From the IMG/VR virus record IMGVR_UViG_3300045988_125874: a stretch of 64,000 nucleotides of DNA. The stretch is one strand, 5' to 3'. Below are positions 201 through 47,396 of the stretch, piece after piece. The translations under genes were made by a program, and so were the position numbers. How positions within the stretch are numbered: position 1 is the first letter of the stretch; each line of letters begins with the position of its first letter. Under the pieces are notes generated by a model that searched no databases, was not told the origin of the DNA, and was given only the letters and a program-made list of their open reading frames with translations. The stretch is from a virus.

Positions 201-1451
201 ATGGCAACTCTTAAACTTACAATTTTCAAAGCAAAAGTTTTAAAGGACGGGAGGCATAAAATAAGAATAGCCGTATGTCATAAGAAAGAGACATGTTATA
301 TTGTAACACGTTTCATTATTGATAACTTGTCGCAGTTTAAGGATGGACAAGTAACAAAGCGTCCTGATGCTTCAATTATTAATTCCAAGCTAAGAAGCAT
401 GATGAATGATCTACAGGATAAATTGGATGAAATAAACCATCAATCACTTTATTCTTGTAAGCAAATTAAAGATATGCTTATATCTGGCTTGGATTCGAAA
501 GGAAAGCATAATATTACTTATCAAAAGGCTTGCAGTGATTTTATAAGTGAACTGAATTCTGAAGGAAGGGAAAGTTATGCTGTATTAATTGAAAGAAGTT
601 GTCGATATTTTACGGAGTTCACTAGGGGAGAAATACCTATGTCAGATATAACTCCAAATATGATTGAAGGATTTTCAAAATACTTGAAAACAAAAAGGAA
701 CATAGGGAATACAACAATTGGGATGATGATGTCTCAAATAAAAGCTGTTATTAATAGAAATATAAATTCAGGTTATGTCAGATATGATATACATCCATTT
801 GTGAACAAGAAAATTCCTAAATCTCCAGTTCGCGAAGTTGATATATCTTTGGAAAGCCTTAATATGTTAAGGTGCAGTAATCCAAAAGAGAAAAAATACA
901 TTGTTGCAAGGGATGTATTTATGCTTTCTTTTTATTTAGGAGGAATGAATTTAATAGATATAATGAATACTCGTTTTGTTAATGACAAAGTAGATTATGT
1001 CAGAATTAAAACGAGGCTTAAAACGGAAGCCGAACAGCATTGCCTACTTCCAATTACCGAACCTGCAAAGATGATAATAAATAGGTGGATAAATAATAAG
1101 ACAAAAAAACTGGATTTTGGATATAAATTTTCGTATCATAATTTTTCAAGGTATACATGCCGATCTCTTGCTACATTAGCAAAGGATTTGGGAATAAAAG
1201 AAAAGGTAGTCTTTTATTCTGCTAGAAAGTCGTTTGCTCAATATGCTTTTGATTTAGGAATCCCCGATAATGTAATAGACTATTGTCTTGCTCATTCAGA
1301 CAAGGGTAGGGGAATTGTCAGGTATTACACAAAAACTCGGTTTAAGCAAGCTGAAATAGCTATAAATAGGGTTATTGATTATATTAATAATCCTGATAAA
1401 TACAAGGAATATATTGAAATGAAAGCCGATATAATGATGATGAAAGGGTAG
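201..1451 (+). CDS. int: Tyrosine recombinase / phage integrase (Bacteroidetes type with N-terminal arm-binding domain)
   Basis: 416 aa. N-terminus KLTIFKAKVLKDGRHKIRI is typical of Bacteroidetes integrases. C-terminal catalytic pattern ARKSFA ... LAHSDKG ... VRYY (R..H..R..Y). Adjacent to a tRNA. Confidence 0.9.
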   Translation: MATLKLTIFKAKVLKDGRHKIRIAVCHKKETCYIVTRFIIDNLSQFKDGQVTKRPDASIINSKLRSMMNDLQDKLDEINHQSLYSCKQIKDMLISGLDSKGKHNITYQKACSDFISELNSEGRESYAVLIERSCRYFTEFTRGEIPMSDITPNMIEGFSKYLKTKRNIGNTTIGMMMSQIKAVINRNINSGYVRYDIHPFVNKKIPKSPVREVDISLESLNMLRCSNPKEKKYIVARDVFMLSFYLGGMNLIDIMNTRFVNDKVDYVRIKTRLKTEAEQHCLLPITEPAKMIINRWINNKTKKLDFGYKFSYHNFSRYTCRSLATLAKDLGIKEKVVFYSARKSFAQYAFDLGIPDNVIDYCLAHSDKGRGIVRYYTKTRFKQAEIAINRVIDYINNPDKYKEYIEMKADIMMMKG

Positions 1452-2038: not shown

Positions 2039-2800
2039 CTATTTTTTCTTTGCATCTTTCTGATGATATAAAGGTATGCTTTTTAATCCATCAATGTGTT
2101 CATATAGATCATTTTCGATATGTTCACAATGCATAGGATCAAGAACAAAGTCAATTCCCTCACGCCTAGCCAATTTTGCAGCAGGAACGAAATCTGAATC
2201 TCCAGAAATAAGAACAATCTTATCCACAAAACCTTTTAAAGATAAAGAAGCGATGTCAACACCAATTTTCATATCAATTCCCTTTTGACGCAATTCATAA
2301 TACACATCATCTTCCTTAATGTCATCAAGAGAAATTTCTTTCTTTAGTAATTTTCTCATTGTGTTATCATAGAAAATCCATCTTTTACTTTCCTTGATAT
2401 TACCTAAACGCAAAGCAACTTTTCTTTTTTTCTTAAGCTCGTTTATTAACTCACTTCTACGAAGTGCTTCTTCTGTTTTAGAGTAGTCGACACATTTCTT
2501 GGAAATGGGGTTGTGTATCTTTTTGGAGAATGGCACACAATCATAATAAAAAATACGATATAAATAATTATTTTTTCCTACATGAGAATGAGATATAGTA
2601 TATAAATCATTAGCAATGGTTAATGCTGTCTTTTTGCCAGACTTATTGTACATTGCATTATAGCGTTTTATAAAATACCCACCATCAATTAATATGGCAA
2701 CTCTTATAGGAGTTTCTGTGTACGATGTATTTGGACGTGTTTTCATAAAATAAAAAAATGGCCTTTGGTTAGGCATGCCCATTATCAAGAGGGGGGACAA
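2039..2800 (-). CDS. NYN-domain (LabA/DUF88-like) putative ribonuclease; true start probably an internal ATG (2782 or 2746)
   Basis: VAILIDGGYF near the N-terminus and LISGDSDFVPAAKLARREGIDF near the C-terminus fit the LabA-like NYN pattern. Confidence 0.7.
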   Translation of the reverse strand: MSPLLIMGMPNQRPFFYFMKTRPNTSYTETPIRVAILIDGGYFIKRYNAMYNKSGKKTALTIANDLYTISHSHVGKNNYLYRIFYYDCVPFSKKIHNPISKKCVDYSKTEEALRRSELINELKKKRKVALRLGNIKESKRWIFYDNTMRKLLKKEISLDDIKEDDVYYELRQKGIDMKIGVDIASLSLKGFVDKIVLISGDSDFVPAAKLARREGIDFVLDPMHCEHIENDLYEHIDGLKSIPLYHQKDAKKK

Positions 2801-3118: not shown

Positions 3119-3283
3119 TTATCGTTTCTCATTTTCGAGCACTGACTTTATTCGTTCTTCAGTAAAACCAAAACGGGCGGCAAACTTCTTGAAAGCCCGC
3201 ATCCTGTTATCCGGAATAAGAGCATACATGCTATTAATAGGAGTATCACTTTTTAATGCTTTTCGGACCTGCTTATTCTTCAT
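3119..3283 (-). CDS. Small hypothetical protein (54 aa, MKNKQVRKAL...), below the ORF-track cutoff
   Basis: Its ATG overlaps the stop of the upstream 149-aa gene by 11 nt (coupled arrangement). Confidence 0.4.
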   Translation of the reverse strand: MKNKQVRKALKSDTPINSMYALIPDNRMRAFKKFAARFGFTEERIKSVLENEKR

Positions 3284-24487: not shown

Positions 24488-24518
24488 TTTGTTTGCATTG
24501 ATGTATTAAATATATTTG
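24488..24518 (+). promoter_or_regulatory. Bacteroides-type promoter of the plus-strand moron
   Basis: TTTG (24488-24491), 19-nt spacer, TATATTTG (24511-24518). ATG lies 28 nt downstream. Confidence 0.65.
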
Positions 24519-24545
24519 CACATATACAACAATATAAATAGAGTA

Positions 24546-25670
24546 ATGGATTTTAAAGACAAAATCATGCAGCTATCTGACAATATAAAGAAACAGAAAG
24601 ATAGGATAGCTACAGAGGAAGCGACAAAAAATGCTTTCATTATGCCGATGATAGCTGCTTTAGACTACGATGTTTTTAACCCTTTTGAGGTTGTGCCTGA
24701 AATGGATTGCGACTTAGTAAAGAAGAAAGGGGAGAAGATAGATTATGCTATAATGAAGGATGAAAATCCGATTCTTCTTATTGAGTGCAAACATTGTAAA
24801 CAAGATTTAAACTTGCATGATACTCAATTACAAAAGTATTTTGTCGCTTCTAACGCACGTTTTGGAGTGCTTACTAATGGTATAGAATATCGTTTTTATA
24901 CTGATCTGGAAAAGGTAAACATTATGGATGAGAAACCTTTTCTTGTTGTGAATATGCTGGAGCTTTCGGACGCAGATATAGAACAGTTGAAGAAGTTTCA
25001 CAAATCTTATTACAATGAAAACGATATTTTAAGTACTGCGAACAAACTTAAATACACGACAGAAATAAAGACAATCTTGAATAGTGAATTTGTTTCACCG
25101 TCATCAGATTTTGTGAAATTCTTTGCTAAACAGGTATACACAACAGGGCAAATAACCCAGAAAGTTGTTGAGATGTTCACGCCACTTGTGAAGAAATCAA
25201 TGTCTAGTGTTGTCAATGACATAATATCTGACAGGCTTAATACAGCTATGAAGAACGATGAACAGGCTGATGATGAAGTTTTCGAAGAGGAAAGTTTGCC
25301 AGATTCCCCCCGACAAGATATAGGCGATAAACTCCCAGAAGGAGTTGTGCACATGGACAAGGACTCCGGTATTATAACTACACAGGAAGAATTGGACGCC
25401 TACAATATTGTGAGGAGTATCTTAAGAAAAAGTATAGATGCCGCACGTATAACTTATAAAGACTATAAAACATATTTCGTTGTTAATCTCGATAGCAGCG
25501 AATGGTTCTGGATATGCCGCATTTCCATTGGTGCAAGAAAGAAACGAATTGGGATACCAGTAGACAGGTACAAAAGCTGCGACTGGATTCAAATTGATAG
25601 CATAGATGACATATTCAAATATGCGGATAGACTTGAAGAATCACTTAAAATGGCAATAGAAAAGTTGTGA
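24546..25670 (+). CDS. HsdR-N-terminal-like PD-(D/E)xK nuclease-fold protein (stand-alone)
   Basis: TEEATKNAFIMPMIAALDYD...GEKIDYAIMKDENPILLIECK...FGVLTNGIEYRFY follows the type I HsdR N-terminal domain pattern. Start taken at ATG 24546. Confidence 0.6.
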   Translation: MDFKDKIMQLSDNIKKQKDRIATEEATKNAFIMPMIAALDYDVFNPFEVVPEMDCDLVKKKGEKIDYAIMKDENPILLIECKHCKQDLNLHDTQLQKYFVASNARFGVLTNGIEYRFYTDLEKVNIMDEKPFLVVNMLELSDADIEQLKKFHKSYYNENDILSTANKLKYTTEIKTILNSEFVSPSSDFVKFFAKQVYTTGQITQKVVEMFTPLVKKSMSSVVNDIISDRLNTAMKNDEQADDEVFEEESLPDSPRQDIGDKLPEGVVHMDKDSGIITTQEELDAYNIVRSILRKSIDAARITYKDYKTYFVVNLDSSEWFWICRISIGARKKRIGIPVDRYKSCDWIQIDSIDDIFKYADRLEESLKMAIEKL

Positions 25671-32057: not shown

Positions 32058-32094
32058 CAAAAGTAGTAAAAGTGGCGTAAACTCAATCACGTTT
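32058..32094 (-). promoter_or_regulatory. Conserved promoter/operator, copy 1 of 4
   Basis: Minus strand AAACGTGATTGAGTTTACGCCACTTTT then the -7 box TACTTTTG. Upstream of the scaffold/capsid operon. Confidence 0.55.
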
Positions 32095-32156
32095 AGTGTT
32101 AAAGTATATAAAAAGTAAATGTTTGGATTTGCCTGAATGAGAGGTGTTTAATTAGG

Positions 32157-32588
32157 CTATTCCTTTAGGTATCTATATGCTTTTAGGTATTTGTTTAGTC
32201 TGTAAATATCTTTCTCTGCAAGTTCGTTCAAACGTGTTATATCCATGTTGTCTTCCAAGTCATGCAATTTAACTTGTCTTCCTATAGGGTTAAGCTTAGA
32301 ACGTTTTATAAAATCTTCGTAACTTTCTCCTTTATTACGAGTAACTGAAATAATAGCATCAACAATATATTGTGGGAATCCTCCCATTAGTAAAAAATCA
32401 GCGGTAACTTCAGTATCTTCTATCGTATCATGCAGCAAAGCAACAATCCTTTCGTTATCTGTAGAACATTTATTTGCGACGCGGATAGGATGAAGTATAT
32501 AAGGCATTCCTGCTTTGTCAACTTGATAAATATGCGCATCTGTTGCTATATGAAGCGCTTTCTCTAATAAAGTACTAATATCTGTCAT
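32157..32588 (-). CDS. Small alarmone hydrolase (HD-domain RelA/SpoT-type hydrolase)
   Basis: HIYQVDKAGMPYILHPIRV, ALLHDTIEDT, ISVTRNK, VKLHDLEDN. Start at MTDIST overlaps the upstream stop. Confidence 0.85.
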   Translation of the reverse strand: MTDISTLLEKALHIATDAHIYQVDKAGMPYILHPIRVANKCSTDNERIVALLHDTIEDTEVTADFLLMGGFPQYIVDAIISVTRNKGESYEDFIKRSKLNPIGRQVKLHDLEDNMDITRLNELAEKDIYRLNKYLKAYRYLKE

Positions 32589-32802
32589 ATTCTGATTTTG
32601 AAATTTCTTTTCCGCCAAGAATTATATTACAAACTGTTTTATTGGATTGTGGAATTTCTATCTCGTTACGCCCACGATGTTTTATATACGATTTTGTTTG
32701 ACCGTTATCGAGATGTAAACGGATAACTGCTTCCTCAAAATCGTCAAGTAAATAAACCGTTTCACCTGACTGTAATTTATTATATAATTCCTTTTGGTTC
32801 AT
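32575..32802 (-). CDS. Hypothetical protein (75 aa) between the MuF fusion and the hydrolase
   Basis: ORF translationally coupled to the hydrolase gene. Confidence 0.5.
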   Translation of the reverse strand: MNQKELYNKLQSGETVYLLDDFEEAVIRLHLDNGQTKSYIKHRGRNEIEIPQSNKTVCNIILGGKEISKSEYDRY

Positions 32803-32826
32803 TTTTATATGTAAAGATAGTGATTT

Positions 32827-34443
32827 TTATTGGAAATGACTATAATATTCAATTGATTTTTCAGCTATTTTTTGTGCCTTTTTATCAGCTTTGTCTAATA
32901 CTCGCCATTCTTCATAATATTTATGTCCTAATCCTCCTTCCATACCTGTTTGCTTCTGTATTTCTTTCCAACGTTTTTCTCCAAGAATTCTTTTTGCGTC
33001 TTCCGGCTTTTCTTTGGCATAAATCATACGTTCTGTATTAACTTGAATTTCGGCAATTAATCCGTTAGATGTTTGGATATTGACTATATTGCCACTATAT
33101 CCCATAAAGGATTCCGGTTTTTGCCTTTTCAGTCGTACAAACGAATCGCTTTCAGATAGTTCGTTTAATACTTGATCTATTTGTGATCTGGGGACTATAA
33201 TTGTCGTCCTAACTGCGTCTTTTATATCGTATGGAGTTATACCTTCCGTTGTAACCTTTCTTGTTATTGATGAGATGCTTTTGTAATTGATTGGCGTTAC
33301 AAATCCTTTATTCTTTTTAGCTATGGATTCCGCTAAACTTTGTACCTCATTCCCGACTAAAGAAGCACGATTAACAAGCTCTTTAGCTGAATTCTCGGTA
33401 TTTATATTTTGAACAATTGATTTGTTATCTCTCAAAAAATAAGGTAGGGTGTTTCTTTTCTGGGCTTTCTCGATCTTTTGACGGTTTTCGAGTACCCATT
33501 TTTTGAATTCGTCAGGAACATCCTTTACTTCATTTATACTTTCTGTGGAAACATCGCTTCGTCCATCCCATTCCCAGAATTCTTCTTCTGTTTTGAGGAT
33601 AGGAACTTTATAACATAAATCATTCGGATGCCATCCTGTCCAGGTGAAGTCTTTAGGATATTTACCGGCAAGTGTGTCACAAATGTCTCCATGTGGCATA
33701 CGACTATGATGAGAAGAACTTAGTTTTATTTCATATCCGACTACGAAATCCATTTGTTTCCATCTTTCGTTTTCGGCTGTTCTATAAGCCATGTTTATTT
33801 CTGAACGGGCTAGACGTATGGAACGATACTCACAATCTTGTATATGTTCAGCACTGCCATATCTGTCTTTGTAATCTTTTTGCAGTAATGGGAAATCAAG
33901 AAGATACTTACTTATTTGCTTACTCAACGTAACAGCACTGGTTCCTTTTTGAATAGCGCATGAGATCGCAGCCTCCAGTTCTTCTTTGTAGATCATAGAT
34001 TGCTGCCAGAGTTTTGCAGATATATTGAATCCTTTATCTTTTCGGTTCTGGAATGCTTTCAAAGCATCTGAATTTGTTTGATATAGTATTTTATATTTTT
34101 CTTTGTCAACTTGGGCGTTATATGCTTTTAGTACTTTGTTTGCTATTAAATCCTGCGCTTCATTACTATTCTTCCATTCTTCGGTAGTACCGCGATAGAT
34201 AGTTGCATTTATATCCTCTACAAAGTGCTTCTGTATATCGTCAATTTGCTTTTTAGTTTGAGGGTAGTCAGACCATTTAAACGGCTTATCGCTATCAGGG
34301 GAATATTTAGTACGTGAAACGGCTTTGGCAGCTTCCAAATTCAGGGTATCGTATATTTGCTCAACGAGGGCTACATATCTGTTTAATCTCCCGTTGAGTT
34401 CTTGGTACTTCTTTTTCTGATTTGGAATCTTGGGTTTTGCCAT
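32827..34443 (-). CDS. Minor head protein (SPP1 gp7 / Mu F family) fused to a C-terminal RelA/SpoT-synthetase-like domain
   Basis: MuF core: SIRLARSEINMAYRTAE, HHSRMPHGDICD, WHPNDLCYKVP. C-terminus (aa 383-480): YKSISSITRK, DIKDAVRTTIIV, MGYSGNIVNIQ, AEIQVNTERMIYA. Confidence 0.7.
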   Translation of the reverse strand: MAKPKIPNQKKKYQELNGRLNRYVALVEQIYDTLNLEAAKAVSRTKYSPDSDKPFKWSDYPQTKKQIDDIQKHFVEDINATIYRGTTEEWKNSNEAQDLIANKVLKAYNAQVDKEKYKILYQTNSDALKAFQNRKDKGFNISAKLWQQSMIYKEELEAAISCAIQKGTSAVTLSKQISKYLLDFPLLQKDYKDRYGSAEHIQDCEYRSIRLARSEINMAYRTAENERWKQMDFVVGYEIKLSSSHHSRMPHGDICDTLAGKYPKDFTWTGWHPNDLCYKVPILKTEEEFWEWDGRSDVSTESINEVKDVPDEFKKWVLENRQKIEKAQKRNTLPYFLRDNKSIVQNINTENSAKELVNRASLVGNEVQSLAESIAKKNKGFVTPINYKSISSITRKVTTEGITPYDIKDAVRTTIIVPRSQIDQVLNELSESDSFVRLKRQKPESFMGYSGNIVNIQTSNGLIAEIQVNTERMIYAKEKPEDAKRILGEKRWKEIQKQTGMEGGLGHKYYEEWRVLDKADKKAQKIAEKSIEYYSHFQ

Positions 34444-34571
34444 TATTTCATTTGCTTTTTCTTATCCTTGTCGTCGGTAGGGTAGAGGTGGTGTTTTACT
34501 ATAATCTTACCACAGATAGGACAATCCTGTACTATGTATTCCACTGTGACTACTCTAGTATGCTTTTTCAT
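34443..34571 (-). CDS. Small zinc-ribbon-like protein (42 aa, CPICG), below the ORF-track cutoff
   Basis: TAATG overlap with the MuF start. MKKHTRVVTVEYIVQDCPICGKIIVKHH... Confidence 0.4.
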   Translation of the reverse strand: MKKHTRVVTVEYIVQDCPICGKIIVKHHLYPTDDKDKKKQMK

Positions 34572-35321: not shown

Positions 35322-35861
35322 TTACGCTGCTTTAACCTTTTTTACAGCTTGGCAGATAGGATATTGTACAATTTCCCAGTCTTCTGCAAACACATCACTG
35401 ATGGATGGTACCCACGAATCAGCACGTCCCGTATTTTCGTTATAGATAAGGCATTGGCTTGTATAGTCAATAAAACCTTTTCCTTTCAGAATAAGGTCTT
35501 TTGCTGATTGAGGAAGCGATTGCATCTTGGGAATGGTATCGCTTTCAATATGTGCAGGCACTTGCTTGAATACCGTCAGGCCTTTGCCGTTCCAGCCGTT
35601 TCTACGGATAGCCCCACCTTGCTTCAAAACTTCGATAGCATCACCGAAACACATAGGAGTTTCTTTCTTGACTTCTCGATATGATTCTTCAAACAATTCT
35701 TTGGGGGACCAACTTTCATAGCCATATTCAGCACGAGTGTGATATCCAAGCCTGCAAGATTCATGCTCTCCTATTTCACTTTTTACCAAACCTTTACGGT
35801 AAGCTTCGCCTAATGTCATAGGTTCTGCTTCAATCTGTTTTGTGCTAATGTACTTTTTCAT
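35322..35861 (-). CDS. DUF2829-domain protein (family of the Thoeris anti-defence protein Tad2) with an N-terminal extension
   Basis: FGDAIEVLKQGGAIRRNGWNGKG ... SWVPSISDVFAEDWEIV. Confidence 0.7.
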   Translation of the reverse strand: MKKYISTKQIEAEPMTLGEAYRKGLVKSEIGEHESCRLGYHTRAEYGYESWSPKELFEESYREVKKETPMCFGDAIEVLKQGGAIRRNGWNGKGLTVFKQVPAHIESDTIPKMQSLPQSAKDLILKGKGFIDYTSQCLIYNENTGRADSWVPSISDVFAEDWEIVQYPICQAVKKVKAA

Positions 35862-36193: not shown

Positions 36194-37594
36194 TTATTCC
36201 GGTTCTTCGAATATATTGCTTATCCTGCTTCTGGAAGCATCTGCATCTTCTTTTTGGATTTGGGCAAGAGTTTCTTGTGGATCAGTAGAGATACCTAAGT
36301 TCTTGATGGCTTCTAATTGGCTGACAACAGCTTTTCCACCACTTGCTGTAACCCATTTTTCTATTTCTGACTTTTCATCATTTTGGATAAATGGAGTTAT
36401 GATGTGCTCAATCTCAACATTATCTACTTCATTTTTCCAAGAAACATTCATCATTTTCAGGAAAGCTTTGATTACGCTACATTCACGTTCAAATGCTTCT
36501 ATCCATGCACCACTTTCATCTCCAACCTTTAAATGAGCGTCAGTAAGTAAAGTCTGCCTTGCATCAAATCCGATATTGCCAAGAGACTTCATGTTTTCGA
36601 AGGAAATATCCGGCATTTGTGATTGTGACCAGAACAACTTAACAAGGGTATCGACATGATATTTTAACGCCTCGATAGATTGTGCCCATGAAACATAGGA
36701 CACGTCCCCGTTTTGTTCTACTCGGTAAACTCTACGGCTTTCTCCTTTATCTTCTCCTCCTTTTATGCTACCTGCTATTTTTAGGATAGGAGCGGAGTTA
36801 TATGCTATGACATCGCTATTGCGTGAAAGGGTATATTCGATTTCTTTTCTGATATAGGAAAGACCGTGATAAATGGGAACAGGACGATAAACGTATACTC
36901 CGGGTATTTTCAGAATAACGACCGGCTCTGATTTAACTAATTCCCAACCGTTTCCCTGTTGTTTCCATTTATAATGAATGTTTGCCGTGTATGTCTCGAA
37001 ATACGTAACTTCTTCATTTTTGACCTTTTTTGTGTATTCAAAAGACATTGCGATCATATCGCCAAGCTCATCAAGTAGAGGGTATAAGCTAACACCGTCC
37101 ATTGGTGAGTAGGTTTTGCATTTTAGCTTATATTTACTTTTAAAGCCGTATAGAGTGTTGGGATTCTCAACTGTGTACCAAATGGTGAACACTTCGCATG
37201 AAGCAAAGTAAGCATTGCCTCGCTTAATATTCTCACTGTCAATACGGGCATACTTATATATCGCTTCAATCGCTTTCGCAATACTTTGGCGGGTTTCATT
37301 GTCTTCTATATTGTGATATACACGTTTAACCGGGATAGCGAACATGAATTCAGTCATTCGCTTGGTGAGGAGTTTTTCAAGTCCGATGTAGATACGGGAA
37401 GCTTTTTCTGTATCTCCATTAGATCGGATCTTATCTTTACGGGTAACTGTGTCAGATACTATATCATGTTCTGTTGGTTCGTAGTCTTTGAGAAGTTTAT
37501 CCCATGAGGGGACTGTTACAGACTTTTCTTTCAAATCGTTGATTATGTTATCAACGGGCCGCGTACTGTCTAAGATAGAGGTGATTTCGTCCAT
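36194..37594 (-). CDS. Portal protein
   Basis: 466 aa. First large gene after the terminase block and upstream of the MuF gene. Confidence 0.75.
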   Translation of the reverse strand: MDEITSILDSTRPVDNIINDLKEKSVTVPSWDKLLKDYEPTEHDIVSDTVTRKDKIRSNGDTEKASRIYIGLEKLLTKRMTEFMFAIPVKRVYHNIEDNETRQSIAKAIEAIYKYARIDSENIKRGNAYFASCEVFTIWYTVENPNTLYGFKSKYKLKCKTYSPMDGVSLYPLLDELGDMIAMSFEYTKKVKNEEVTYFETYTANIHYKWKQQGNGWELVKSEPVVILKIPGVYVYRPVPIYHGLSYIRKEIEYTLSRNSDVIAYNSAPILKIAGSIKGGEDKGESRRVYRVEQNGDVSYVSWAQSIEALKYHVDTLVKLFWSQSQMPDISFENMKSLGNIGFDARQTLLTDAHLKVGDESGAWIEAFERECSVIKAFLKMMNVSWKNEVDNVEIEHIITPFIQNDEKSEIEKWVTASGGKAVVSQLEAIKNLGISTDPQETLAQIQKEDADASRSRISNIFEEPE

Positions 37595-42800: not shown

Positions 42801-44888
42801 TTATTCCTTTCTCGGCTCATCACCGTATTTTTCTACAAATGCTTTTAAAATATCATCTAAGTTGCCACGAATACCTGCATCTTGTATGTAATGGAGTTTA
42901 CCAACGCAACGTTCATGTAATTTGAATACACCACGATATTTCATACTTACAGGTTTATCGGTGAACACGGAAGTAGCAATAACACCACATTGATGTTTAT
43001 ATCTTATATCCAGTTCTGATTTAAATTCTGATGAAAGAACGCCCATTATTAGCAATCGGCTCAACTTAGGCAGAGGGTGGTCTATGACAAAATCCGATTT
43101 CATCCAAACTGCATCCATGCCGTATTTGCTGACCTTCAGGAAGTCAAACATACAAGCTCCGAACACGTAATCATCCAAGAACCACAAATAACAGAACGGA
43201 GCTGATCCGAGTATGATGCCTTTCTTCAAGTAAATCATGCGCAGATAATCAATTTCTGCCATAGAAGCACGAACAAACCGGAGTTTGCTATTATTTGTAA
43301 GTACGTAATCGTCTGGCAACCGTTTATATTTTAGAGGGATGATAGTCCGCTTGTTAAAACTGCTGTCTCCACTTTCTACCACATTAGACCAAATATATGT
43401 GCGTTGGTCTTTGAATACCTCTCTTCTGCCCATAAATCCATGCTGCGAGAGAGCCATGTAATTAACTTGTTCTTCATCTATTTCTGCATATTTCGTTTTA
43501 GTTCGTTCTTGAGATCCAAAATCATCCAATAAGAAACGCTGTAATGCGTTGCTTGTGGCTTTCATACCGGAATGAAATTCATTCTGATAGATCAATATGT
43601 CATTCTCTTTGCAGTTAAGAATTGCATCTGATATATCAGCACAATAAAATACTTCAATAGACTTACTTTTAAGGCTGTCTACGAGCTTTTGGTAACGTTC
43701 CGTATACTTCTTATGGTAATGCTCCAATTTTGCCATAAAATCGTCATAAAGCGACTTATGGTAAATATCTTGTGAGTTCTTATGCTTCTTGATGGCATTG
43801 AACAGATGGATAGTGGCAATAATTTCAGCCGGACTTTCAGACTTGATATTCAGAAACTCATATTCATCATTAAAACGCAGTTCTTTTATCTCTCCCTTGA
43901 TTGCCTTATACATCATGTAGATAAAATACTCCTTTGTATACACCTTAATCTCACGGTTGGTAAGTATTTGCTCTATATCCATATAGTATGAGTTTACCAC
44001 ATGAGCAATATCAAATTTGGCCGCTTCTTTCTTGATGAAGGAAAGCATACGATTAGTTTTCTTAAACATGGAGCCTACTATCGTAACATTGTCCGAGTGT
44101 TCTGCTGCCCAAAGTAACGGTTTATGTCTTTGGGGAACCTTGGAATAGTCTATATGGAATGTCTCAAGACATTTGTCAATAGTGGTGAGTTGCTTATACT
44201 CTTCTATGTCTTCATGTAGGTAGGCATATTCTACAAATGAATACATGAATTTGATTGTTTCCAGCACCTTGTCGAAGTCCCATGAACTATTGAAGATACG
44301 GAATTCTGCTGTTCCTATCTTTTCAATAGAACATAAGTTGAGCCAGTACCGGATATGTCCTCTATCTGACCCATTACTAAAAACTTTCAGTAAATTCTCA
44401 ATATTATCTGCTTCAAGAACTCGTTTTACAACATCCCAAGGTGGACTGGGTACGAGATATTTTGTTTCCCACCACTCGGCAATGTCAAATATTCGTTTGA
44501 TTGGATAAGCGGTGTAGTAGGAGAGGGCAAACAAACGTTTGATAACATTCAAGTCCATATCTTTGATGTATAGATGTGCATCAAAACCTTCATTCCACAT
44601 GAGATAACTTCCTGCATCTCTCATGGTCTGAATAAAATTCTTCAACTCCTGCAAATCTTCTATACAATAATGGTATGGGCGTGTGTTTATTTCCCCGCCA
44701 AATTGACCGTGATGCGTAACTGCCGATCCATCCGAGTTATTCATCATGGTTAGCTTGTTATCCGTCCACTTGTAACCCGATGGAAGAGGAATGTGCTCTT
44801 TATCACCATCAGCGAACTCCAGTTCCATGCCAAATGTGCGATTGGCTATATAGTCAATCCACGGTTTATCTATATTCGTGTTCTGCAT
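42801..44888 (-). CDS. Large protein with an N-terminal amidoligase-like (Amidoligase_2 / GS-like) domain and about 450 aa of unknown function
   Basis: RTFGMELEF ... NNSDGSAVTHHGQFGGEINTRP fits the amidoligase pattern (G.E.Ef ... DgS ... gg.Ei.sp). Confidence 0.55.
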   Translation of the reverse strand: MQNTNIDKPWIDYIANRTFGMELEFADGDKEHIPLPSGYKWTDNKLTMMNNSDGSAVTHHGQFGGEINTRPYHYCIEDLQELKNFIQTMRDAGSYLMWNEGFDAHLYIKDMDLNVIKRLFALSYYTAYPIKRIFDIAEWWETKYLVPSPPWDVVKRVLEADNIENLLKVFSNGSDRGHIRYWLNLCSIEKIGTAEFRIFNSSWDFDKVLETIKFMYSFVEYAYLHEDIEEYKQLTTIDKCLETFHIDYSKVPQRHKPLLWAAEHSDNVTIVGSMFKKTNRMLSFIKKEAAKFDIAHVVNSYYMDIEQILTNREIKVYTKEYFIYMMYKAIKGEIKELRFNDEYEFLNIKSESPAEIIATIHLFNAIKKHKNSQDIYHKSLYDDFMAKLEHYHKKYTERYQKLVDSLKSKSIEVFYCADISDAILNCKENDILIYQNEFHSGMKATSNALQRFLLDDFGSQERTKTKYAEIDEEQVNYMALSQHGFMGRREVFKDQRTYIWSNVVESGDSSFNKRTIIPLKYKRLPDDYVLTNNSKLRFVRASMAEIDYLRMIYLKKGIILGSAPFCYLWFLDDYVFGACMFDFLKVSKYGMDAVWMKSDFVIDHPLPKLSRLLIMGVLSSEFKSELDIRYKHQCGVIATSVFTDKPVSMKYRGVFKLHERCVGKLHYIQDAGIRGNLDDILKAFVEKYGDEPRKE

Positions 44889-45744
44889 ATCTCAACTTGA
44901 CTAATGATTTATAATCAGGGACAAAACGAACCACATCACCAATGTGATAATCCGAAACATGGTCACATTGCATTATTGTATATTCGCTGGAGCTATCTAC
45001 ATACTTCAAATTGGTATAATAGGGAATTCTGCATTTAGCCATGTCCGCCATTGAATAACCGCAATCGAGAATGAGTTGATTACGCTCTGGATAGATGCCT
45101 ATTATTCTTGTTTGTAGTTCTATCCCATTAAAGCCTTTTTTCTCTTCATTATTGCAATATGGAATAGTGCCAAACAGCATATATTCTCCTATTCGCACAT
45201 CACTTATGAAGTTTGGAAGTTTGTCATACTGTCCGAGCCAAAAACTTCCTCCTAAACTGATGGATTCAATATATCCTTTTAGGTTGTCCCAGATGTCGTA
45301 TAATCGCGACATTGGCGGGTATTTGTCATTGAGGCAACCGGAAGTAATCATACCGTATATATGAGCATCTGAAAGCATCCTTATTTCGTTAGCTAGTTTG
45401 CTTGCTTCATAAATGCTTAAACCTTCTCTGTTATCGTAAGCGTCAATTGGAATGTAGTAGTTGTGTATTCCTTGGCAACCCTCTCCATTAATAGTGAGAT
45501 ATTTCCAAGAGTCAGCAAATGATGTTACTACTGCACCTATATTATCTTTTGTCGCTTTCCCAATAGAATAACATACGCTATCTTTCAAATGTAACCCGAA
45601 AATCTTATTTCTTATTTTATCCGCTATATGCTCATGAATATCTTCATAGAAGTCCTTAAACATTAATGAAATGGGAACATTAACAAACGATTGCGCCTTT
45701 TCAATGTTCTCTATTATATTCTTGGTATAGACAATAACTTTCAT
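44866..45744 (-). CDS. Alanine-racemase-fold (PLP-dependent, predicted amino-acid racemase-like) protein
   Basis: ISLGGSFWL ... VRIGEYMLFG ... LILDCGYSMADM resemble the COG3457/YhfX-type racemase fold. ATGA overlap with the GNAT gene. Confidence 0.4.
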   Translation of the reverse strand: MKVIVYTKNIIENIEKAQSFVNVPISLMFKDFYEDIHEHIADKIRNKIFGLHLKDSVCYSIGKATKDNIGAVVTSFADSWKYLTINGEGCQGIHNYYIPIDAYDNREGLSIYEASKLANEIRMLSDAHIYGMITSGCLNDKYPPMSRLYDIWDNLKGYIESISLGGSFWLGQYDKLPNFISDVRIGEYMLFGTIPYCNNEEKKGFNGIELQTRIIGIYPERNQLILDCGYSMADMAKCRIPYYTNLKYVDSSSEYTIMQCDHVSDYHIGDVVRFVPDYKSLVKLRYAEHEYR

Positions 45745-46640
45745 AGCTCCCACTTTAAGATTAAACGTTCAATCCCTTTGTATTTGGTATCACGTTTGAA
45801 CGAGAACCCGGCATTGGTAAAACTCTTGATACTTGCTTCATTTTTGGGTGAGGTCATGGCAAATACCTCTTGTGCACCGTTTGAAACCAATTTTGCAAGA
45901 TTAGCATTGAGTAGAATGTACTGAAAGCTATTACCCCTATAATCTGAACGAACGAAACATTTATCTACGTAGGCAGTACCGTATTCAGTGAAATATGCAA
46001 GCGAATAAGCAACCAGCTTATCATTTGTCAATAATCCGTAACTGCAACCAGATTGCAAGCACTTGACTATATCTTCCGGTTCCGAAGCGAAACACATATC
46101 AGGATCAGAGAGCAACTTTTGCTCAATTTCTTCTATGGTAGTAATGTCAGACATAGATAAAGCTTTCACTTGCATATTGTATTCTATGCTTCCTTTATGC
46201 GTCGGGAACAATGGTTCGTAACGGTCAATCCATGCTTTAGAAAGGAATGTGTCTATATCGACTTTAGGCAATAATGCTTTTCTATAATTGTCGAAAATGT
46301 CTAGTACAAATTCTTTATGCTTAGTAAGTTGCTCATTTTTCAACGGACATTTACTGCTACGGAAAACAAGACCTTTTTTTACCGACTTTACCCACAAAGG
46401 ATAAGTTCTACACATGATAGGTTTGTAGCCATTATCACATGATTTACAGTCTTTAGCGATACATTTAATCTTTTTACCGCCAAAGTAATCATCATCTATA
46501 ATCTGTAAATGGGAGATTTCTTTTTCATACCCGTCAAGTTCATGGGGGAGAATTACAATATGTCCGTCCGATCCGAACGAACAACACTTCCAACCGCAGC
46601 CGGAGTTTTCACATGCTCTTATTAGTCCTTTTTCGTCCAT
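45741..46640 (-). CDS. Fusion of a CxxCxxCC (YkgJ-type Zn/Fe-chelating) domain and a GNAT acetyltransferase domain
   Basis: N-terminus: CENSGCGWKCC ... KPIMCRTYPLW. C-terminus: FVRSDYRGNSFQYILL ... SPKNEASIKSFTNAGF. Confidence 0.65.
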   Translation of the reverse strand: MDEKGLIRACENSGCGWKCCSFGSDGHIVILPHELDGYEKEISHLQIIDDDYFGGKKIKCIAKDCKSCDNGYKPIMCRTYPLWVKSVKKGLVFRSSKCPLKNEQLTKHKEFVLDIFDNYRKALLPKVDIDTFLSKAWIDRYEPLFPTHKGSIEYNMQVKALSMSDITTIEEIEQKLLSDPDMCFASEPEDIVKCLQSGCSYGLLTNDKLVAYSLAYFTEYGTAYVDKCFVRSDYRGNSFQYILLNANLAKLVSNGAQEVFAMTSPKNEASIKSFTNAGFSFKRDTKYKGIERLILKWEL

Positions 46641-47251: not shown

Positions 47252-47326
47252 ACTAAATGCAAGGAATCGAACCTTGTCGCTTACTTTACACAACCTCAAT
47301 CAACGAGCCGAGTTTAACGGCATTCG
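47252..47326 (-). tRNA. Degenerate tRNA-like element C (75 nt): good T-arm, imperfect acceptor, irregular D and anticodon arms (possible pseudo-tRNA)
   Basis: T-arm CAAGG-TTCGATT-CCTTG. Acceptor TCGAATG/CATTTAG has 5 pairs. Only 3-bp hairpins where the D and anticodon arms should be. Confidence 0.3.
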
Positions 47327-47396
47327 AGCGGAAACAGGGAATCGAACCCCACTCTTTGGCTGGAATGCCAACGCTCTACCGATGAGCTATTTCCGC
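47327..47396 (-). tRNA. tRNA with a Gly-like acceptor but a non-standard anticodon arm (TTGGC-ATTCCA-GCCAA: 6-nt loop, or 8-nt with a 4-bp stem)
   Basis: GCGGAAA-TA-GCTC-ATCGGTA-GAGC-G-TTGGC-ATTCCA-GCCAA-AGAG-TGGGG-TTCGATT-CCCTG-TTTCCGC. Confidence 0.7.

Follow-up and report, generated by a model that had tools for sequence, protein, structure and literature searches.

A probable Apk2–BcTis1–Aph1-type toxin-immunity cassette in the head-morphogenesis module of a prophage

Organization of the cassette

The DNA analyzed here, the 64,000-nucleotide IMG/VR virus record IMGVR_UViG_3300045988_125874 (hereafter the window), represents a prophage: it contains an integrase gene at 201..1451 as well as tape measure and tail genes. 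At positions 32,157 to 34,443 it carries three consecutive genes coding for a MuF-fused protein of 538 residues, a protein of 75 residues and an HD-domain protein. Upstream of the first of them, and separated from it by four small genes, is a portal gene of the SPP1 type (36194..37594), and scaffold-like and major head genes are found downstream of the cassette. This locus, situated in the head-morphogenesis module of the prophage, is very probably an allele of the cassette known from temperate phages of Bacteroides as Apk2-BcTis1-Aph1. Its genes and domains were assigned as follows.

32827..34443, minus strand: MuF-fused toxin, apk2-type gene, 538 residues; predicted adenosine 3′-pyrophosphokinase ((p)ppApp synthetase) polymorphic toxin
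33409..34443, minus strand: MuF-like minor-head or capsid-targeting domain, residues 1 to ~345, assigned by PHROG matches, fold, relatives and gene position
32827..33408, minus strand: Tas1/Apk-type predicted (p)ppApp synthetase toxin domain, residues ~346 to 538, assigned by sequence and fold match to Tas1
32575..32802, minus strand: tis1-like (BcTis1/IapK-type) gene for a predicted non-enzymatic immunity protein, 75 residues, assigned by Pfam, fold and 89.3% identity
32157..32588, minus strand: aph1-type gene for a predicted monofunctional (p)ppApp hydrolase (HD domain), 143 residues, assigned by 81% identity to PDB 7SMG

The open reading frame (ORF) of the HD protein was called as 32157..32618, with a TTG start and 153 residues; translation almost certainly begins at the ATG at 32588, yielding 143 residues, because the crystallised homologue begins at that Met. 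The three genes are tightly coupled, since only 24 nt separate the toxin stop codon from the ATG of the 75-residue gene, and the latter overlaps the gene starting at the hydrolase ATG by 14 nt. A first-pass annotation, made by a model from the letters of this DNA, had described these three ORFs and quoted seven motifs from the 538-residue protein, all of which were found as claimed; nt 33004-33297, which it gave for residues 383-480, also proved arithmetically correct. The motifs of the N-terminal part are SIRLARSEINMAYRTAE (residues 208-224), HHSRMPHGDICD (residues 245-256) and WHPNDLCYKVP (residues 271-281, codons at nt 33601-33633), and those of the synthetase part are YKSISSITRK (residues 387-396), DIKDAVRTTIIV (residues 406-417), MGYSGNIVNIQ (residues 447-457) and AEIQVNTERMIYA (residues 464-476).

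The C-terminal synthetase domain

The C-terminal ~180 residues matched the toxin domain of Tas1/Apk1 (PDB 6OX6_A) with E=6.7e-28 in a phmmer search. The AlphaFold2 (AF2) model of the whole 538-residue protein presented a predicted local distance difference test score (pLDDT) of 92.6 and a predicted template modelling score (pTM) of 0.81, with a flexible loop at about residues 291-300. Foldseek placed this model on 6OX6_A (Tas1) with E=6.7e-11, a template modelling (TM) score of 0.85, a root-mean-square deviation of 2.3 Å and 35% identity, and weaker fits were obtained with B. subtilis SAS1 (TM 0.59, 5.3 Å) and with CapRel (PDB 7ZTB; TM 0.30, 12.4 Å, E=4.8e-4). Since Tas1 was ranked above both SAS1 and CapRel, the domain, being nearer to Tas1 than to the (p)ppGpp-producing small alarmone synthetase (SAS) enzymes, was grouped with the (p)ppApp makers. 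The structure comparison of the C-terminus proposed in the first-pass annotation was thereby carried out, and the fusion of a MuF protein with a toxin domain of the RelA/SpoT superfamily, as read there, was borne out by PHROG families, by fold and by the Tas1 match.

The synthetase active site is retained, comprising the Mg-binding Asp, the Arg three residues on and the E-x-Q motif: D409, R412, E465 and Q467 align with D327, R330, E382 and Q384 of Tas1 (residue list from PMC12691689). P0049 is a 538-residue B. caccae protein present in the metagenomic loci L001 and L002. The window protein differs from this Apk2-type protein at 23 positions, none of them among the four active-site residues, and its toxin domain is separated from the characterised Apk2 by only 7 substitutions, all conservative and non-catalytic. 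The likeness in sequence and model to the features by which Apk2 is recognised supports the prediction that the domain makes (p)ppApp.

The Aph1-type hydrolase

When searched against the PDB by phmmer, the HD protein matched 7SMG, the "(p)ppApp hydrolase" Aph1, with E=9.3e-74 and with 116 of 143 residues identical (81.1%), and its next-best matches were the Rel/SpoT hydrolase domains at ~1e-11. The HD motif residues H53 and D54 and those of the Aph1 specificity signature, taken from PMC10083569 (D24, R96, D116, R119, K133 and Y134), were all eight identical to 7SMG, so that both the HD motif and the signature that define the Aph1 family are present. The protein was also matched by phrog_990 "metal-dependent phosphohydrolase" (4.5e-49) and, weakly, by Pfam HD_4 (E=4.2e-4).

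It was demonstrated for the B. caccae Aph1 and 12 homologues that these enzymes hydrolyse adenosine alarmones with no detectable ppGpp hydrolysis, and that mutation of D24 or R119 broadens Aph1 towards ppGpp (PMC10083569). Because of the 81% identity and the intact signature, the substrate was inferred as (p)ppApp; the window protein would therefore cleave pApp, ppApp and pppApp, and not ppGpp. The first-pass annotation had anticipated that a small alarmone hydrolase would provide the immunity enzyme, which agrees with the Aph1 match. The "(p)ppGpp-hydrolase motif set" it recognised in this protein is present as regards the motifs, and its substrate label was imprecise, the Aph1 family having no detectable activity on ppGpp.

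A side observation concerns the nucleotide level. At ~32080-32650 of the window, the aph gene and the spacer that follows it presented ~80% identity to the B. caccae-type locus, versus ~93-95% in the flanks. This low-identity patch is mosaic and suggests that the hydrolase gene was exchanged apart from the toxin and tis genes, and it fits the remark in the literature that aph is variably present beside Apk2.

The Tis1-like immunity protein

The 75-residue protein matched Pfam Tis1_ImmP (PF24154) with E=2.2e-5 and 24.9 bits, just under the gathering score of 27, and precomputed PF24154 matches were found in six of its close homologues. Its AF2 model (pLDDT 81), compared with 350,542 PDB chains, found its best fold match in Tis1 (6OX6_B; TM 0.57-0.58, 3.0 Å, E=0.054). 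A profile built from 19 Tis homologues did not retrieve Tis1 among PDB sequences, the fold search alone having found it, which fits the 24% identity reported for BcTis1; a search of NCBIfam with the 75-residue protein gave no match. Moreover, the protein is 89.3% identical to P0284, the BcTis1-type protein of the B. caccae-type locus that bears Aph1. Each of these lines is marginal singly, and all agree on a small protein of Tis1 fold encoded right downstream of an Apk toxin, as in the Tis1-like/IapK family. Sequence and model together support the assignment of a second, Tis1-like immunity protein, a role that the first-pass annotation had suggested for this ORF between the other two genes.

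The MuF-like head domain and its polymorphic family

The N-terminal part of the toxin was compared with phage head proteins in several ways. phrog_7625 "head morphogenesis" was matched over residues 19-526 with E=6e-89, and the N-terminus was further matched by phrog_1657 (9.4e-26), by phrog_115 "minor head protein" (3.5e-17) and by the phrog_16625 "Bxa ADP-ribosyl transferase" family (E=1.5e-67). A Foldseek search against BFVD returned proteins named "Minor capsid protein", "Phage head morphogenesis domain" and "MuF-like minor capsid protein", aligned over ~300-330 columns with E values of 1e-7 to 1e-3 and TM scores up to 0.60. In the full-length relatives P0213 and P0229, Phage_Mu_F was aligned from position 3 to 112 of its 112 positions at residues 152-285, with E~1e-4. 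PF04233 was matched by only 3 of the 63 relatives scanned, every one below threshold, and at the gathering threshold neither PF04233 nor the NCBIfam SPP1 gp7 model was matched by the window protein.

As the direct sequence match to SPP1 gp7 and Mu gpF is not significant (hhalign E~0.05), MuF membership rests on fold, PHROG families, relatives and gene position, which agree on a MuF/SPP1 gp7-like N-terminal domain. The aligned hhalign pieces, though non-significant, land on an equivalent C-terminal Cys motif, which reads DDCNCRC in SPP1, GWNCRC in Mu and WHPN(C/D)xCY in the window family. SPP1 gp7 and Mu gpF (PF04233) are likewise encoded downstream of the portal, and the window domain resembles MuF-like minor capsid proteins at the fold level; unlike the window protein, gp7 and gpF carry no toxin domain.

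When 1.84 billion cluster representatives were searched exhaustively, 3404 relatives were retrieved, most of which align at residues 1 to ~345 only and then diverge, reaching lengths of 475-1388 residues; about 15 of the top 150 matched the 538-residue protein end to end. In the 63 relatives scanned with Pfam, the C-termini found in place of the synthetase were Gln_amidase (glutamine deamidase), ADPrib_exo_Tox, ART, CdiA_C, LPD3 and ATLF (anthrax-LF-like). A fixed N-terminus, swapped C-termini, immunity genes and a temperate phage are all found here, as in the MuF polymorphic toxins. The description of the locus as a polymorphic C-terminal toxin with immunity genes, made in the first-pass annotation, was thus upheld by these swapped C-termini and by the published Apk2/BcTis1/Aph1 architecture (PMC10083569). 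A Bacteroidales MuF N-terminal family with ADP-ribosyltransferase (ART), deamidase and Apk2-like C-termini was described in the 2024 Bxa paper (PMC11699363).

Comparison with published systems

The B. caccae locus consists of Apk2 (BcTas1, BACCAC_01148), BcTis1 (BACCAC_01147) and Aph1 (BACCAC_01146; PDB 7SMG) (PMC10083569), and the window proteins are 95.7% (515/538), 89.3% and 81.1% identical to them, respectively. In L001 and L002, the downstream 143-residue gene product is identical to 7SMG at 143 of 143 positions. Because these loci with an Aph1 identical to 7SMG carry neighbours so similar to the window proteins, the window locus was taken as an allele of the system characterised from the phage of B. 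caccae. Both share the gene order, the lengths of 538, 75 and 143 residues, the position in the head module and the catalytic and specificity residues. The window differs by an extra Tad2-like gene between the portal and MuF genes and by an indel of ~104 nt upstream of the MuF start. The cassette is already known and differs in nothing of kind from the published one: a prediction of the architecture appeared in 2017, and the biochemistry, the structure and the double immunity were reported in 2023. Public databases already contain proteins identical to those of the window, from B. ovatus among other sources, and some of them are named "Tas1 [Caudoviricetes sp.]".

MuF-Apk cassettes are common in human-gut Bacteroidales prophages. 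Public records mostly label such proteins "hypothetical", and the practical value of the present locus is that of a correctly annotated example; raw sequence alone had sufficed for the earlier reader to recover a real three-part toxin-immunity system.

Other known systems share parts of this design. In the P. aeruginosa pair Tas1/Apk1-Tis1 (PDB 6OX6), delivered by a type VI secretion system (T6SS), the toxin domain is homologous, the immunity has a Tis1-like fold and the mechanism of (p)ppApp synthesis and ATP depletion is the same. However, Tas1 uses a PAAR/T6SS delivery domain whereas the window toxin has a MuF/phage head domain, the Tas1-Tis1 pair lacks the hydrolase immunity present in the window cassette, and Tas1 is bactericidal whereas BcApk2 is bacteriostatic. 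In the tricistronic FaRel toxSAS system of Cellulomonas marina, a (pp)pApp toxin is countered by a small alarmone hydrolase (SAH), ATfaRel, and by AT2faRel, with a Tis1-like N-terminal domain (PMC11782079), which follows the same logic as the window, a logic that the first-pass annotation had invoked; it differs in being a chromosomal toxin-antitoxin system without a delivery domain, with a promiscuous SAH not of the Aph1 type and with the toxin placed between its two antitoxins. The Bxa-BAH-Bsi system of a Bacteroides stercoris prophage (PMC11699363) has a homologous MuF N-terminus, the same site in the head module and, as in the window, a reversing enzyme plus a binding protein as immunity, but it carries an ADP-ribosyltransferase as the C-terminal toxin, and the enzyme that confers immunity is an ADP-ribosylhydrolase. 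Apk2 is also found in Streptococcus, Mannheimia and Pasteurella prophages (Paulet et al. 2025, PMC12226406), and among Apk2 systems the hydrolases were interchangeable and the binding immunities specific.

Taken together, the homology and fold of the proteins, the retained residues for catalysis and specificity, the order and coupling of the genes and the polymorphism of the family support the assignment of the cassette with high confidence. The matches of the C-terminus to Tas1, of the HD protein to Aph1 and of the N-terminus to phrog_7625 greatly exceed what chance would produce. Several observations weigh against it or limit it. The whole 538-residue protein had no match in Pfam and none in NCBIfam, and in a scan with a lax E-value RelA_SpoT reached 19.7 bits (E=1.1e-3) on the isolated C-terminus, below its gathering score of 27. 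Phage_Mu_F was absent from residues 1-347 even at E<=10, and the hhalign comparison of a 53-sequence N-terminal profile with the single sequences of SPP1 gp7 and Mu gpF had a probability of ~1%. Of the profile searches proposed in the first-pass annotation, RelA_SpoT thus remained below threshold and Phage_Mu_F gave nothing; the similarity of the C-terminus by sequence was to Tas1. Residues K353 and N370 of Tas1 are without identical counterparts in the window toxin, as is also the case in the active B. caccae Apk2. In the phage collection, tblastn found the Tas1-like domain in only 2 records, neither of them a Bacteroides phage with virion proteomics, and the collection contained no cultured Bacteroides phage bearing it. 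The motif TAnnTTTG, considered below in relation to expression, was not enriched in the window (80 found versus ~75 expected). Furthermore, the activity attributed to this allele is taken from its orthologues, and the packaging and ejection of Apk2 with virions are treated as a hypothesis in PMC10083569 and PMC11699363.

Proposed mechanism, expression and delivery

The N-terminal ~345 residues would constitute a portal-associated, SPP1 gp7-like minor-head module, and the C-terminal ~190 residues would transfer pyrophosphate from ATP to the 3′-OH of AMP, ADP or ATP, producing pApp, ppApp and pppApp. This synthesis would drain the adenylate pool and lead to growth arrest. The Tis1-like protein would bind the toxin and occlude its acceptor-nucleotide site, Aph1 would return the remaining (p)ppApp to AMP, ADP or ATP, and the two translationally coupled downstream genes would in this way guard the toxin-producing cell. 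Ahmad et al. (2023, PMC10083569) found that the toxin domain BcTas1tox was bacteriostatic in E. coli, that ATP was lowered and that pApp, ppApp and pppApp were made; it was also demonstrated that BcTis1 and Aph1 each protected partially and that both together protected fully.

Concerning expression, the coding strand has a Bacteroidota-type –7 box (TAnnTTTG) upstream of the portal gene and another after aph, and none was found between these two. Because of the lack of a separate box between these points, which is weak evidence, co-transcription of the cassette with the head genes was inferred; a scan for sigma-70 promoters and terminators gave the same counts as shuffled sequence. The cassette would be expressed with the late head genes and, therefore, the immunities may chiefly shield the virion-producing cell.

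The head loading of RelA-like MuF toxins and their delivery with the DNA were put forward by Jamet et al. in 2017 (PMC5576092). According to this idea, a few copies of the fusion would enter the procapsid through the MuF domain, docked at the portal like SPP1 gp7, which occurs in few copies in the capsid and binds both portal and DNA (cited in PMC10083569), and would be delivered with the genome. It is tentatively proposed, as an outcome that is possible and rather less than probable, that intact MuF-Apk2 is loaded without its immunities and ejected with the DNA, causing in the newly infected Bacteroides cell an immediate burst of (p)ppApp and ATP depletion before phage gene expression. If true, the burst could, for instance, weaken defences that depend on nucleotides or influence the choice between lysis and lysogeny, and resident prophages expressing tis and aph would be immune. 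If MuF toxins are injected, a phage-delivered alarmone synthetase would represent an unusual way to reprogram or disarm the host at entry; the delivery idea dating from 2017, its demonstration would be the new part. As a corollary of lower probability, and because Aph1 recognises adenosine 3′-pyrophosphate, this enzyme may strip the 3′-pyrophosphate put on tRNA CCA ends by CapRel/FaRel2-type defence toxins, acting in counter-defence.

Alternative readings of role and chemistry

The live alternative concerns the biological role and not the chemistry. With the same biochemistry, the toxin might not be delivered by virions, and the fusion with its immunities might instead serve the lysogen population, either as a competition or colonisation factor released by lysis, as proposed for Bxa, or as an addiction or exclusion module, the MuF part being simply a head component to which cargo became attached; this was considered an unlikely account, to be kept in view. 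It is favoured by the case of Bxa, whose homologous MuF N-terminus accompanies a toxin that targets epithelial cells and favours colonisation by lysogens (PMC10083569, PMC11699363), by the lower toxicity of full-length BcTas1 relative to the isolated domain (PMC10083569) and by an immunity-gene layout typical of interbacterial toxin systems; moreover, packaging is treated in the literature as a hypothesis. However, the toxin gene occupies the gp7/MuF site downstream of the portal, where SPP1 encodes its low-copy portal- and DNA-binding capsid protein, and no separate promoter was detected for the immunity genes, although this last point is weak evidence. In addition, (p)ppApp synthesis requires cytoplasmic ATP, and an extracellular role would need a route of entry.

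As for the chemistry, the first-pass annotation had proposed "an alarmone or tRNA-pyrophosphorylating enzyme", leaving room for a C-terminus that acts as a tRNA 3′-CCA pyrophosphokinase of the FaRel2/CapRel/PhRel type and inhibits translation, with the HD protein removing the pyrophosphate from tRNA. The toxic small alarmone synthetases (toxSAS) and RelA/SpoT homologues (RSH) do form one superfamily, CapRel appeared among the fold matches, and a CCA end with a 3′-pyrophosphate would chemically be an adenosine 3′-pyrophosphate. Nevertheless, this reading is very improbable. The fit to CapRel is poor beside that to Tas1, and the features of the tRNA-pyrophosphorylating toxSAS, similarity to CapRel/FaRel2 together with a pZFD-type antitoxin, were not found in the cassette. 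It was reported that Tis1-like immunity goes with (pp)pApp synthetases, whereas tRNA-targeting toxSAS are countered by pZFD-type antitoxins (PMC11782079). In cells, the 96%-identical Apk2 lowers ATP and makes pApp, ppApp and pppApp (PMC10083569), and (p)ppApp was the only product of the Apk2tox enzymes purified from S. pneumoniae and M. haemolytica systems (PMC12226406). Fold ranking, type of immunity and products of the orthologues therefore retain the alarmone half of that proposal, in the form of (p)ppApp, and set aside the tRNA half.

A (p)ppGpp synthetase with a (p)ppGpp hydrolase, manipulating the stringent response of the host, which the motif label of the first-pass annotation implied, is hardly credible: (p)ppGpp metabolism was the original target prediction for RelA-like MuF toxins (Jamet et al. 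2017, PMC5576092) and would agree with the weak RelA_SpoT and HD_4 matches and with the Rel/SpoT domains standing next-best for the HD protein, but that protein is 81% identical to an Aph1 with no detectable activity on ppGpp and keeps D24 and R119, the synthetase is nearest to Tas1/Apk1 and has a near-identical orthologue that makes (p)ppApp, and swaps of the syn2-4 motifs do not turn Apk2 into a ppGpp synthetase (PMC12226406).

Insertions and extra domains in relatives

The observations of this section were made in relatives of the toxin and not in the window. Relatives of 877-881 residues, with 52% query cover and one of them from B. fragilis, were considered as C-terminal toxin swaps, and this was rejected since they represent the same fusion broken by an intein-like insertion. 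In P0100, P0103 and P0121, ~339 residues are inserted inside the most conserved MuF motif, with the layout WHPN | CYSNDSEVLT ... FWGSN | C(M/R)(D/C)YKVP; the homologous site in the window lies at nt 33601-33633. The insertion bears a Cys at position 1, a terminal Asn and a Cys at +1. Intein_splicing and LAGLIDADG_3 scored 0.016 and 0.024 on P0100, one representative reached 4e-6, and a BFVD match was named "Intein splicing domain". These signals, weak but consistent, point to an intein with a LAGLIDADG homing endonuclease. Inteins are not mentioned in the text of Jamet et al. 2017 (PMC5576092).

A sub-threshold match to Peptidase_C65 (otubain) was also obtained in the intein-bearing relatives (E=3.4e-5, 23.9 bits versus 24.3; residues 596-701 of P0103 and 596-697 of P0100). 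It covers the end of the intein and the linker between MuF and toxin, corresponding to about residues 280-365 of the window protein, which itself has no such match. The match is probably spurious, although a peptidase able to release the toxin from the delivery domain would be of importance if true. Other MuF-Apk relatives that align end to end, P0129, P0229 and P0258 (970-1320 residues), continue beyond the synthetase with a DUF3626 domain (best E=1e-7) and may be two-headed toxins.

Neighbouring genes of the prophage

Between the portal and MuF genes, the window carries a gene for a Tad2-like protein of 179 residues (35322-35861, minus strand), which matched the Thoeris anti-defence 2/DUF2829 family (PF11195) with E=3.5e-18. 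Relative to the B. caccae-type phage, this gene is a clean insertion of ~520 bp (L002 joins 3191 to 3194). In a megablast of 9 kb against the phage collection, the Tad2-like gene alone matched isolated Bacteroides temperate phages (BS-TP1, BS-TP2 and BF1-TP2). Immediately upstream of the MuF start there is a 42-residue ORF with a CPIC motif (34443-34571, minus strand), whose stop overlaps the MuF ATG; about 104 nt at this ORF are without counterpart in L001 and L002, where the gap is 16 nt.

Farther from the cassette, a 695-residue protein (42801-44888, minus strand) combines Amidoligase_2, phage DAM-like and phage GNAT-like domains, and a second GNAT protein is encoded at 45741-46640, the next gene but one. 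The two may constitute a prophage module for modifying DNA or nucleotides. A gene with HSDR_N domains (type I restriction R N-terminal; 24516-25670, plus strand) adjoins the tape-measure gene on the opposite strand, an NYN-domain protein is encoded near the integrase end (2039-2800, minus strand), and ARAGORN identified a tRNA-like element with an ambiguous two-base anticodon at 47326-47396 (minus strand).

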